Assembly (NCBI GenBank): GCA_963664325.2 | Contig: CAXXDQ010000003.1 | Span: forward strand, 992,001 to 1,056,000 | DNA length: 64,000 nt | From: Desulfomonilia bacterium | Lineage (GTDB): Bacteria; Desulfobacterota; Desulfomonilia; UBA1062 | Direction: 5' to 3' | Notes under the pieces: generated by a model | The model's input: the letters and a program-made list of their open reading frames with translations, nothing else | What the model was told of the DNA's origin: nothing | Databases searched by the model: none | Translations under genes and position numbers: made by a program | Shown here: positions 38,683-41,387 of the stretch, one piece after another | How positions within the stretch are numbered: position 1 is the first letter of the stretch | Layout of the letters: every line of letters begins with the position of its first letter

Positions 38683-39123
38683 TTACTCATTGATGAACAA
38701 CGCGTAAATTAGGTGACCGCCATCAGTTACTGGGTCACGCAGAGCAACGCGTTGGCCTGCGCGTATCACTAGATCAGTCTGGGATTTAGCCCTCGCGAGT
38801 TCACTTAAAGTGATGAACATTTCACCCTTCTTGACTAGGTCGAACAGGGCGTCGCGAGGATTCGCAGTGCCTTTCAGAAAGTCGGCAGATACATTTACCG
38901 CATAAGCCGTAGGTCCGTCACAGACGAGTTCTGCGGACTTGGAAACAGTAAGCTGCTCGCAACTGACTGCCTTCGGCACGATCTCTAAATCCGTTGCGAA
39001 AACAATCGCCTTGTGGAGATCGTCCATGTCCCAGAGGATGCCTCTCTTGTCAAACGCCTTCTTGGCTGCCTGTGAGGCTGTCATTAATCTCTCGAATCCT
39101 TCGCGAAACTCGTTTTGGTTCAT
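38683..39123 (-). CDS. Integron cassette protein, hypothetical (first cassette)
   Basis: ORF lies between GTTCGGC (39142-39136) and its exact complement GCCGAAC 3 nt after the stop. Confidence 0.75.
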   Translation of the reverse strand: MNQNEFREGFERLMTASQAAKKAFDKRGILWDMDDLHKAIVFATDLEIVPKAVSCEQLTVSKSAELVCDGPTAYAVNVSADFLKGTANPRDALFDLVKKGEMFITLSELARAKSQTDLVIRAGQRVALRDPVTDGGHLIYALFINE

Positions 39124-39135
39124 GGGCGTTGTCCA

Positions 39136-39176
39136 GCCGAACTATTGATTATACTGCAGCAATTAAATGTTATCAT
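39136..39176 (-). other. attI-like site with overlapping cassette promoter
   Basis: GTATAAT-CAATA-GTTCGGC with no upstream attC half; ATGATA-N17-TATAAT points into the cassettes. Confidence 0.55.
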
Positions 39177-39439
39177 ACTTACCTCCCAACCGATCCGATG
39201 CTTAAAAATATCACGATAAAACCATTGATTCAAGCTATTATATGCTTTAATTTGTTTAAATATTAATGATTATACCGCTGAGAGATAATTGAGTTGAAAT
39301 ATTAATCATGCCTTATAATGTCATTCCAAAATAGCAAACAAAACTATAAAGTACTTTGCAAAACATTGAGCACTAATGGTGTCACCCATTAAAAGGTAGC
39401 TGTCAAGAGAGTAGGTTTCTCCGTTAGCAGAGGCGTTGG

Positions 39440-39828
39440 ACCCTTCTGCTTGCATGTGCAACCATAGCGATAATTGCTGTTTTACCATGCCCTGACTTGC
39501 CGCCGCCTTATTTTCTGTTAATATTGGTTACGGATGCCTGATCCGCACCAGTCACCCATCGGGATCAAGGTTATCTCGGGCTGCCCGAGGCCCGGAACTC
39601 TCGGGGGGGGGTCCGGGGCGAGAGGCAGCCCAACCCCTGGCTTGAAGCCCCAGAAAAAGCATCGGTTCATTGCCGTGTCCGATTTGTTTTCACAGGTTTT
39701 ATGGTTGCTGGCCAACACCTTCTGGCTCATGGCAATGGCGGTTGTCAAAGCATGGCGAGGGACGGCTGACAAATCAGGCCTTGTGGTTCTCATCCCAACA
39801 CCTTGAGGTCTTGCCGTCCCAGCCATAT
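39440..39828 (-). ncRNA. Putative bridge/seek RNA of the IS (boundaries approximate)
   Basis: Stem-internal-loop at 39752-39826 carries GGTGT and AAGGCCTGA, which match the two sides of the insertion site; a second similar loop at 39668-39737; ATGGGTGA (39559-39552) matches the circle junction. Confidence 0.75.
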
Positions 39829-40848
39829 TCATGAAACCAGCATCTCCTCTTTATAGGGGACCTGATCCTTCATGATGTAGTAGCTGGCCCTTGCCAGCTT
39901 ATGGGCCAATGCCTTTATCGCTACAAACTTATTCTGCGAAGACTCCTTGCGCTGGTAAAAGGAATTGAGCCTTCTGTTGTACCTCCTTGCTATGTTTGCA
40001 GCCTCGATAAACGCCCATGCTAAATATTTATTACCGTTCTTTGAGTTGCCTTTACCTTTGACCTTGTCATTCGATGTCCACTTGCCGGATATGCACCTGC
40101 TGTATGACGAAAAGTTGCCGACTTTCTTGAATCTCGATATGTCTCCCACCTCATACATGATTGTTAATGCCAGAGTCTTGCCTATACCCGGAACTGTAAG
40201 AAGGTTTTCAAATTCCCTTCTGAGCCTGGCTTTCTCAAGAACCGCTTTTTCTATAACCCTGATCTCATGATCCAGAGTCCTTATAGTATTTACGCCGGAT
40301 ATTGCCATCAGCCTTGAATATTTGTCCTTGAAGAGCCTTTCTATTTCTTCTTCTTTAAGGGTCTTTATATCATATGAGTTGATTCTTCTTGCCGTGCACC
40401 TGTTGATCAGTCCTTGCAGAGAAAGAATATTGGAGGTCCTTTGATGAACAAAGAAAGTCCTCTTTCTGAACAAATCCCTCAGAGGCCTTTCTTCTTTCGG
40501 GTAAATATACCCTTTCCTCAAAATGCCGAGAGAAAGCATCTGGGCCAGCCAGAACGCGTCGCTCTTGTCATCTGAATGCTTCAGCCCGCTGTACTGATGA
40601 TTCGCAGCAGGGTTTGCAAGGCACACTTCATATCCGGAATCCATCAACCCGTCCACGAGCCAGTACCAGTTGAATGTGCTCTCAACTGTAATAGCCTTGA
40701 TGTTCTCCCTGAATGGTTCAAGTTCATAGACAATCTTGGGCAGTTCGTTCGGAAGCCTCCTGTGGTAAACCTTCTCCTGAGTGATCTTATCCAGTATCCC
40801 AACGTAAGTATTGTTCGAATGAAGATCCATCCCGACGTACAGTTCCAT
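39829..40848 (-). CDS. IS110-family transposase/recombinase
   Basis: YVGMDLH, VEST and KHSDDKSDA (DEDD RuvC-like domain); LLTVPGIG, Ser-containing GKWTSN, GNKYL and ALAHKLAR; start reassigned to ATG 40848. Confidence 0.95.
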   Translation of the reverse strand: MELYVGMDLHSNNTYVGILDKITQEKVYHRRLPNELPKIVYELEPFRENIKAITVESTFNWYWLVDGLMDSGYEVCLANPAANHQYSGLKHSDDKSDAFWLAQMLSLGILRKGYIYPKEERPLRDLFRKRTFFVHQRTSNILSLQGLINRCTARRINSYDIKTLKEEEIERLFKDKYSRLMAISGVNTIRTLDHEIRVIEKAVLEKARLRREFENLLTVPGIGKTLALTIMYEVGDISRFKKVGNFSSYSRCISGKWTSNDKVKGKGNSKNGNKYLAWAFIEAANIARRYNRRLNSFYQRKESSQNKFVAIKALAHKLARASYYIMKDQVPYKEEMLVS

Positions 40849-40940
40849 CTCCTGTCCCTCCCTTCCTTCGCTTTCTATTCTCAACGTCCTCTGCTAGGGA
40901 GAAACTTACTACTCCTTAGAAACTGCCTTTTAGATGATTA

Positions 40941-41063
40941 TCAGGCCTTTATTCTTGATATTTATGTCGATTGGTTTTAGGTTTTTATTATGGATACATC
41001 GCTGAGTATCGAATATCCAAGAGCAGAATACGTTTTATTTTGTCAAGGATAAAGGCCTGACAC
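40941..41063 (+). pseudogene. Internally deleted RAYT/IS200-like (Y1) element remnant bounded by 23-bp inverted repeats
   Basis: (GTG)TCAGGCCTTTATTCTTGATA and TGTCAAGGATAAAGGCCTGACAC match at 21/23; ATG 40990 reads MDTSLSIEYPRAEY, resembling the RAYT N-terminus MxRPLRIEYPGAxYHV. Confidence 0.55.
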
Positions 41064-41102
41064 ACTGTCACCACATCTACATAAACAGGAGCAGTGGAAA
41101 TT

Positions 41103-41285
41103 ATGACAGACAGAAAGAAAGCATGGATAAGGCCGGAACTGATTGTCTTGGTCCGCAACAAACCAGAAGAGCAAGTTCTGACTGCATGTAAGACCAGTGG
41201 GCAAACGTCTTCGGTGTCCACGTTCCAGACAGGGTGCAAGGACGAATTTGGGTGTCCTGACTGCAGCGAGCCGGGCTCATCCTAA
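41103..41285 (+). CDS. Small Cys-rich RiPP-like precursor peptide (SynChlorMet-cassette type leader)
   Basis: KKAWIRPELIVLVRNKPEEQVLTACK leader, then a Ser/Thr/Gly/Cys-rich tail with GCPDC; AGGAG upstream. Confidence 0.7.
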   Translation: MTDRKKAWIRPELIVLVRNKPEEQVLTACKTSGQTSSVSTFQTGCKDEFGCPDCSEPGSS

Positions 41286-41387
41286 ACATCCCCAACCCCT
41301 TTGTGACTGATGGACCAGTCGAGAAATCTTCGTCAAATTACTTAAAGAGTTACAAGTCATCAGATCATAGCATAAAATTGAAAATGA

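Follow-up and report, generated by a model that had tools for sequence, protein, structure and literature searches.

The 64,000-nucleotide stretch of Desulfomonilia bacterium DNA analyzed here (the window; contig CAXXDQ010000003.1, positions 992,001 to 1,056,000) carries on its minus strand an insertion sequence of about 1.56 kb, counting the TG present at both junctions (39383..40943). With a probability of roughly 0.9, we consider this to be an IS110-family insertion sequence of IS1111-type organization whose 3′ non-coding region encodes a seekRNA, that is, a bridge-type guide RNA. The hairpin that follows the transposase gene is very probably a target-reading guide RNA and a new example of a known mechanism, RNA-guided IS110/IS1111 recombinases having first been described in 2024. 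This view is carried by sequence matches between the hairpin and the insertion site, a covarying stem, co-change of guides and flanks across the family, and a natural retargeting in a close relative, all of them observed in the sequences compared here.

The right junction of the element reads AATGGG-TGA-CACCATTAG (39390..39373) and the left junction AAAGGCC-TGA-TAATCATC (40950..40931), so that the empty site would have been AAAGGCC TGA CACCATTAG. Directly past the transposase stop codon (39831..39829), a stem formed by GGGACGGC and GCCGTCCC encloses an internal loop, as the preliminary description of this DNA had reported. The 3′ strand of the loop holds AAGGCCTGA, identical at 9/9 positions to the left flank plus core, and the 5′ strand holds CTCAAGGTGT, which is complementary to the element's own right flank at 8/10 positions (ACACC exact) and to the consensus of the genomic repeat that serves as target at 7/7; the 9/9 and 8/10 matches had likewise been claimed earlier and were recovered at the same places. 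The hairpin folds with −39.3 kcal/mol (z = −4.63), and none of 200 shuffled sequences folded equally well. When the 444-nt non-coding region was shuffled 20,000 times with dinucleotides preserved, the 9-mer match arose 116 times, a complement of 8/10 or better 2,558 times, and the two within 60 nt of each other 4 times, which makes a chance match at this single locus unlikely, though not overwhelmingly so. An explanation in which the hairpin is merely structural or terminator-like, marking the end of the transposase gene and resembling the flanks by chance, can draw on these figures, as the 9-mer alone is not very rare and the complement is common, and on the abundance of the target motif, the 9-mer occurring 171 times in the genome against about 33 expected. 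Against it stand the rarity of both matches together, the absence of a U-tract after the hairpin and of any entry there in a terminator scan, and above all the behavior of the loop strands in about 45 relatives with different targets, where they track the flanks and already contradict the chance reading; we give this explanation almost no weight.

To place the hairpin in its family, one genome per species was scanned and the best 80 of 542 relatives were taken, with transposases 48–57% identical to the present one and aligning with it end to end from residue 1–5. In most of the relatives kept, a hairpin of the same design begins 0–25 nt past the stop codon. The hairpin alignment comprises 58 sequences (this element and 57 relatives), and the counts of guide/flank agreement given below refer to about 45 relatives. 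From the 58 sequences RNAalifold predicts the outer stem, with compensatory changes in 10/10 pairs, and in a trimmed alignment 11/11 outer-stem pairs are altered on both sides. Outer-stem cells are paired in 89.5% of cases compared with 66.7% in shuffled alignments, of which 0/500 reach the observed covariation score, and sliding the partner strand by 1–3 columns lowers the pairing to 34–50%. RNA folding and covariation were the checks that the preliminary description had proposed, and both came out in favor of the hairpin. The inner TGG/CCA pairs are almost invariant (GC in 56/58, GC in 56/58, and UA in 43/58) and hence uninformative on covariation; the inner stem-loop is accordingly a predicted structure. 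A covariance model of the hairpin (R1) scores 44.1 bits on the element's own copy, which is a training member, and finds the hairpin just past the transposase gene in 18/21 further loci, the three misses being fragments that hold the right end only. Some of these matches are near-copies of training rows; L024, L035, L062, L069, L092, L095, and L097 are not, the last being a copy on a Pseudomonas plasmid that does not lie in an integron. Within the genome itself R1 detected only the element's own copy and no free-standing guide RNA.

The tips of the element are conserved in the relatives (TG-ATAATCAT, with variants, at the left end and AATGGG-TG at the right), so the ends of relatives could be located independently of the guides. 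On the left side, 46/58 loci had an anchor, 45 of them distinct, and two that contain masked N were scored as misses. Over the 8 nt before TG, the RNA agrees with the left flank at a mean of 4.76/8 positions compared with 2.62 ± 0.18 when flanks are permuted (0/10,000 as high, n = 45). On the right side 41/58 loci were anchored, and several anchors that fell on an internal look-alike were retained and scored as misses; here the right flank agrees with the reverse-complemented 5′ strand at a mean of 6.0/10 compared with 3.63 ± 0.23 (0/10,000, n = 41). Both permutation figures overstate significance in that the relatives are not phylogenetically independent. The left signal is confined to the 5 nt next to TG: positions −5 to −1 equal their own flank in 33, 37, 37, 37, and 43 of 45 relatives, whereas positions −8 to −6 are at chance (12, 7, and 8 of 45). 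On the right, positions +1 to +7 match in 36, 33, 29, 30, 28, 26, and 23 of 41 relatives, and position +10 in 11/41. An unbiased scan of every non-coding column against every flank position recovered the same guide columns, many different guide sequences being represented among the relatives, and in the held-out loci with readable junctions (L024, L035, L062, L069, L095, and L097) a guide/flank match is visible by eye. A working guide comprises 5 nt plus TG on the left side and about 7 nt on the right side. The guide strings of the preliminary description are present in the element, but the windows that hold across the family are shorter than those it gave.

Natural retargeting is seen in a copy from the same genus (G001:C47, L089), whose DNA is 86–88% identical to the element apart from an internal deletion of about 490 bp in the transposase gene. 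It is mainly in the loop strands that the two hairpins differ. In place of AGGCC+TG, this copy has the left guide TGTTC+TG, which equals its own left flank, TGTTC-TG, at 5/5 positions, while its right guide agrees with its own right flank at 5/7. Right-end fragments of the element also occur at several contig ends of the same genome (among them C11:1-58 and C109:1-55), which suggests several copies in that genome and recent activity of the family within the genus. An orthologous empty site, sought through the flanks in 30 relatives, was found in none of them; only G001:C22 has a homologous intergenic stretch, and this lacks the target repeat.

The comparison of junctions also settles the core. 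TG is present at both junctions of the element as well as in the decayed copies and the relatives, and insertion is specific for site and orientation with no longer target duplication. The base following TG at the right junction varies among 41 relatives (A in 20, G in 12, C in 9), while at the left junction the element's first base past TG is A in 43/46; the shared core is therefore TG and not TGA, the third base being common here only by coincidence, and the 3-nt TGA core of the preliminary description was dropped. In one genome, four copies that are otherwise identical (L044–L047) differ in the first core base of the right junction, which reads AATGGGCG in two and AATGGGTG in two, and the internal block 3 described below retains TG in 4/4; the difference could be a trace of a core mismatch at insertion.

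The site that the RNA would specify, AGGCC-TG-ACACCTT, occurs exactly 10 times in the genome (4.3 Mb in 9 contigs) against 0.03 expected from composition, with 8 further sites at one mismatch. All 10 exact sites lie inside one family of palindromic repeats with a consensus around TTGTCAAG..TAAAGGCCTGACACCTTT and, in almost all copies, a left context of TTGTCAAG..TA or TGTCCCATTTC; the copies often form inverted pairs 36–150 bp apart in intergenic DNA. The occupied site is itself a member of this family with one mismatch (ACACCAT), and an unoccupied paralogous site at C3:53181, which independently supports the ends assigned to the element, reads AAAGGCCTGACACCATTTGG. In addition to the one full copy, the genome holds three decayed pieces of the element (C7:57119-57215, C7:698368-698421, and C8:79542-79575; L002–L004) whose similarity to the element ends exactly at TG. 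These represent a right end, a left end, and a right-end tip, each still attached to a target half at TG, and the left-end piece adjoins an inverted, unoccupied target, as does the element in the window. A protein search of the genome found no further IS110-family transposase.

Several observations weigh against the guide-RNA interpretation, beyond the shared ancestry of the relatives mentioned above. The right guide is mismatched to the element's own flank at +6 and +8, and in the Pseudomonas plasmid relative the left flank agrees at only 2/5 positions, although the right agrees at 7/7. A search of Rfam over 39000-41300 (E ≤ 1) returned no matching family, save for a chance match inside the transposase gene, and among the 23 sequencing runs checked there was no RNA run containing the stretch and no evidence of transcription. 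The C-terminal GL-P----S/T-G motif of IS1111 transposases is not kept: where IS621 has GLTPRRYESG, the present protein has RCISGKWTSN and shares the Ser only. In PMC11187229 this motif is reported as a conserved logo and not as a membership criterion; as it is not kept apart from Ser, the element is filed as IS1111-type by its organization only and is not a proven member of the IS1111 branch of transposases. Finally, 10 perfect targets stand unoccupied while the genome has but a single full copy and three decayed ones, and the copy may be inactive or newly arrived. This last point, the internal deletion in the transposase gene of the same-genus copy, and the replacement by Asn of the Gly that follows the catalytic Ser would all suit a genuine guide surviving in an inactive relic, in which enzyme, guide, donor, and target no longer work together. 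The 340-aa frame is nevertheless intact and aligns end to end with the relatives; no damage is seen in the two ends, the inverted repeats, the boxes of the candidate junction promoter, or any RNA module, and the contig-end fragments in the related genome point to a multi-copy, recently active family. A relic appears unlikely, if by no means negligible.

The 340-aa reading frame is the only long frame of the element. It leaves 444 nt of non-coding DNA downstream of its stop codon, compared with 90 nt between the left end and the start codon. The transposase matches PF01548 (E 2.8e-13, 50.4 bits with a cut-off of 29) and PF02371 (Transposase_20; E 4.5e-16, 59.4 bits with a cut-off of 21.3), and over residues 5–331 it scores 176 bits against the NCBIfam equivalog NF033542, 'IS110 family RNA-guided transposase' (cut-off 140). 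Together with the IS1111-type layout, these matches support the assignment to IS110/IS1111 made in the preliminary description. The C-terminal half can be aligned with the IS621 transposase structure 8wt6 (E 2.6e-8), with the position of the catalytic Ser retained. The Glu and two of the Asp residues of the DEDD set align with IS621 only in a weak stretch (i-Evalue 4.8), and the first Asp (in GMDLH) was placed by eye only, IS621 residues being numbered as in the excerpted text of PMC11208158.

By analogy with published relatives, from which transcription, RNA processing, protein binding, and catalysis are taken over, the element may be envisaged to work as follows. It would excise as a circle, and joining of the ends at the TG core would create a promoter (TTGACA, 17 nt, GATAAT) from which the transposase gene and the downstream non-coding region would be transcribed. 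The first 75 nt past the stop codon would fold as the hairpin with its internal loop and be bound by the transposase; at the right half-target (ACACCTT) the 5′ loop strand would pair with the DNA top strand, and at the left half-target plus core (AGGCC-TG) the 3′ loop strand would pair with the bottom strand. The DEDD and Ser active sites would then swap strands at TG, leading to insertion in one orientation into the palindromic genomic repeat. Junction promoters are known for the family (PMC11187229, in excerpt), and the candidate here, whose two boxes would come together only on circularization, fits that precedent. The −35 sequence TTGAC is almost invariant at the same place in 20 aligned relatives, and a scan for sigma-70-like promoters in the integrated element found 0 where 2.3 were expected. 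It is conceivable that the guide acts not as RNA but as single-stranded DNA, in the manner of the subterminal DNA hairpins involved in target choice by IS200/IS605 elements, a distinction that sequence analysis cannot make. The hairpin, however, lies about 370 nt from the nearer end and not at the end, G-U pairs are among the compensatory types in its stem and favor RNA, and the non-coding region of IS1111-/IS110-type elements acts in trans as an RNA that co-purifies with the transposase, according to PMC11187229; the chance that DNA is the guide seems slim.

Beyond the hairpin, the non-coding region is likewise conserved blockwise across the relatives. The first of these blocks, module 2, is a second loop built like the hairpin (module 1), and the two together measure 159 nt, the size of the published 'long seekRNA'. 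In four loci R1 gives weak second matches 55–60 nt past module 1. The 5′ strand of module 2 tracks the right target weakly (29/45 at 39715) and alters in step with module 1 in G001, whereas its 3′ strand shows no consistent match to the left flank and none to the element's ends. Farther downstream, 39655..39663 is the best complement in the non-coding region to each element's own left-end tip (mean 5.74/9 in 38 loci compared with 2.31 ± 0.66 over all columns), with weak covariation (5.74 compared with 5.51 ± 0.07, 54/10,000 permutations being as high). Block 3 consists of the right-end tip and the core, followed by a dinucleotide that equals the first two flank bases in 40/45 relatives (the first in 43, the second in 40). 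The dinucleotide falls into five classes (AC, GC, CC, TG, and TC), and right-flank position +1 against the block 3 column was the strongest signal of the unbiased scan, at 45/45 compared with 13.7 expected. A GGTG duplication accounts for two of the five misses. In L037 and L074 the right-end tip carries an extra GGTG (AATGGGTG-GGTG) ahead of the guide-matching flank.

One possible reading is that 39655..39663 and block 3 serve as donor-reading strands within a bridge RNA of several branches. The left guide of the target loop and the candidate one in block 3 share the form N5-TG-NN-TGG, where NN in the target loop (AT) corresponds to the two bases with which the left end of the element opens, and NN in block 3 to the two that open the right flank. 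It is possible, as a tentative proposal, that the non-coding region reads DNA beyond the two published guide strands, that the left guides match the recombinant junction in a handshake that mirrors that of IS621, and that the whole would constitute a full multi-branched IS1111-type bridge RNA. For 93% of IS1111 elements, Durrant et al. (2024; PMC11208160, in excerpt) predict a bridge RNA that lies in the right end and carries its donor-binding bases in a multi-loop. For ISEc11, on the other hand, the excerpted account in PMC11187229 has the published short seekRNA suffice without a donor-binding part, which argues against such a part being essential. The preliminary description saw enzyme, guide, donor, and target all in view; its interpretation is supported, but it had marked no donor-reading part of the RNA, and what was found here are candidates for one. 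Two downstream 'anti-guides' considered as partners of the guide strands were dropped, ACCTTGA because it lies in a block conserved whatever the target, and ATCAGGC because it is unchanged in G001 despite the different guide.

The features of the element are collected in Table 1. The subterminal inverted repeat can be extended by eye, with gaps, to about 24 nt (39438..39415 with 40905..40882), and position 12 of the left-end tip is complementary to position −8 of the right-end tip in 36/38 relatives. Two open frames overlap the non-coding region (39518-39832 on the minus strand, 104 aa, and 39534-39806 on the plus strand, 90 aa); they are taken as non-coding on the grounds that the relatives show gaps of 1 and 2 nt in this region, along with paired changes in the stems. 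Directly beside the element lies a frame of 63 aa with a Cys-rich C-terminal part (41094-41285, plus strand), and NCBIfam has no family for it or for three other flanking frames tested. In the sequencing runs that contain the window, contigs of 1.6–1.7 kb match only 39545-39571 and 40652-40677 of it; these contigs have 1,086 letters between the two stretches compared with 1,080 here, as well as higher depth, and suggest that the sample also contains another relative of the element.

Table 1. Features of the insertion sequence and its surroundings (positions in the window; arms of inverted repeats are given without strand).
Feature	Position	Strand	Basis or remarks
Whole insertion sequence	39383..40943	-	Junction reading; similarity of decayed copies stopping at TG; terminal motifs kept in relatives
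Transposase gene	39829..40851	-	340 aa from ATG at 40851; open frame back to TTG at 40884
Module 1, putative target-binding hairpin (short seekRNA; target-binding loop of bridge RNA)	39752..39826	-	Fold, alignment, covariation
Outer stem, 5′ arm (GGGACGGC)	39813..39820	-	String check, fold, covariation
Outer stem, 3′ arm (GCCGTCCC)	39759..39766	-	String check, fold, covariation
Right-target guide, 5′ loop strand (CTCAAGGTGT)	39798..39807	-	Complementary to top strand of right flank; window shared across the family, 39804..39798 (last 7 nt)
Left-target guide plus core, 3′ loop strand (AGGCC+TG)	39775..39781	-	Identical to top strand; 9-mer of the preliminary description (AAGGCCTGA) at 39782..39774
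Predicted inner stem-loop between guide strands	39784..39797	-	TGG, 8-nt loop, CCA
Module 2, second loop built like module 1	39668..39737	-	Outer stem is inverted repeat I11; conserved in relatives
Candidate right-donor guide (GATGCTTTT)	39655..39663	-	After GAACC and before TGG, like the right-target guide in module 1
Block 3 (ATGGG-TG-AC), candidate left-donor guide plus two 'handshake' bases	39551..39559	-	Right-end tip, core, and first two right-flank bases
Left half of occupied target (AAAGGCC) plus TG	40942..40950	-	Junction reading, decayed copies
TG plus right half of occupied target (ACACCATTAG)	39373..39384	-	Junction reading, decayed copies
Right subterminal inverted repeat arm	39410..39422	.	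I4, 13 nt, 92%; partner 40898-40910
Left subterminal inverted repeat arm	40898..40910	.	I4, 13 nt, 92%
Terminal-proximal inverted repeat arm	39390..39399	.	I10, 10-nt arms, partner 40923-40932; brackets donor core region
TTGACA, −35 box of candidate circle-junction promoter	39401..39406	-	17-nt spacer, then GATAAT from core G and first five left-end bases
Unoccupied look-alike target	41053..41066	+	Inverted relative to occupied site; 2 mismatches to the 14-mer

Taken alone, the element adds one more ordinary case to a class described only recently, and NF033542 already names its enzyme an RNA-guided transposase. Its value lies in the data, as the element and about 45 relatives supply natural pairs of guide and target that set the guide lengths. 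The role of the conserved downstream modules in IS1111-type elements is left open by the literature, and the flank-following dinucleotide of block 3 suggests that retargeting may need a third site to be changed; were the donor-reading proposal true, this third programmable site would have to change whenever the element is retargeted.

Comparison with known systems, drawn from excerpts of the papers cited, places the element closest to the IS1111-type seekRNA elements (ISEc11, ISPa11, ISKpn4, and ISPst6; PMC11187229). In these, the long non-coding region is downstream and gives rise to a required RNA of 70–100 nt that co-purifies with the transposase; a form of 145–170 nt is also described, and the segment matching the bottom strand follows, on its 3′ side, the one matching the top strand (Siddiquee et al., 2024; PMC11187229). 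The transposase here, of putative DEDD type, is similarly about 340 aa (330–350 aa being the published criterion), and the longer non-coding region lies downstream, as the group is defined in PMC11187229 and PMC11208160. Subterminal inverted repeats of 7–17 bp are characteristic of the group, and here there are 13-nt arms (92%) as well as 10-nt arms. The hairpin, within the 70–100 nt range, sits right past the stop codon with its top-strand match (39807..39798) 5′ of its bottom-strand match (39782..39774), modules 1 and 2 together correspond in length to the longer form (about 150–170 nt), and the target can be read as 5 nt, TG, and a right half, like the IS1111-type targets tabulated in the excerpted review (PMC13604230). 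Unlike the published IS1111-type elements as excerpted, the present one has as its target a palindromic repeat of its own genome, and its 444-nt non-coding region is much longer than the long RNA. Its transposase also sets it apart, being at most 57% identical to those of the best 80 of 542 relatives and 51.7% identical to the best plasmid match. Among plasmid records, 545 matched, all at less than 60% identity; no IS1111-type name appears among the 75 matches listed, the closest one there to carry a name being labeled 'ISGsu4 family' (45.9% identity).

With IS621 and the IS110-type bridge RNA (PMC11208160 and PMC11208158), the element shares loop strands that pair with the top and bottom DNA strands around a 2-nt core, and a recombinase that combines a RuvC-like domain with one bearing the Ser (Hiraizumi et al., 2024; PMC11208158). 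IS621 differs, in the excerpts of these accounts, in having its RNA upstream of the gene, a reversed strand order, a CT core, and two simple loops, whereas the donor-reading candidates here are spread over a multi-branched region; the 'handshake-like' bases fall on the left-guide strands here and on the right-guide strands in IS621. A further group for comparison comprises the members that target repetitive extragenic palindromic (REP) sequences, namely IS621, ISPa11, and ISPpu9 (PMC12288879, in excerpt). The repeat sequence of the present genome differs from theirs, being built around TTGTCAAG..TAAAGGCCTGACACCTTT and often arranged in inverted pairs, and the small RNA was not found in free-standing copies. 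Like those members, nevertheless, the element has a fixed insertion point and orientation within a short palindromic repeat present in many copies, and has decayed or partial copies elsewhere in the genome.

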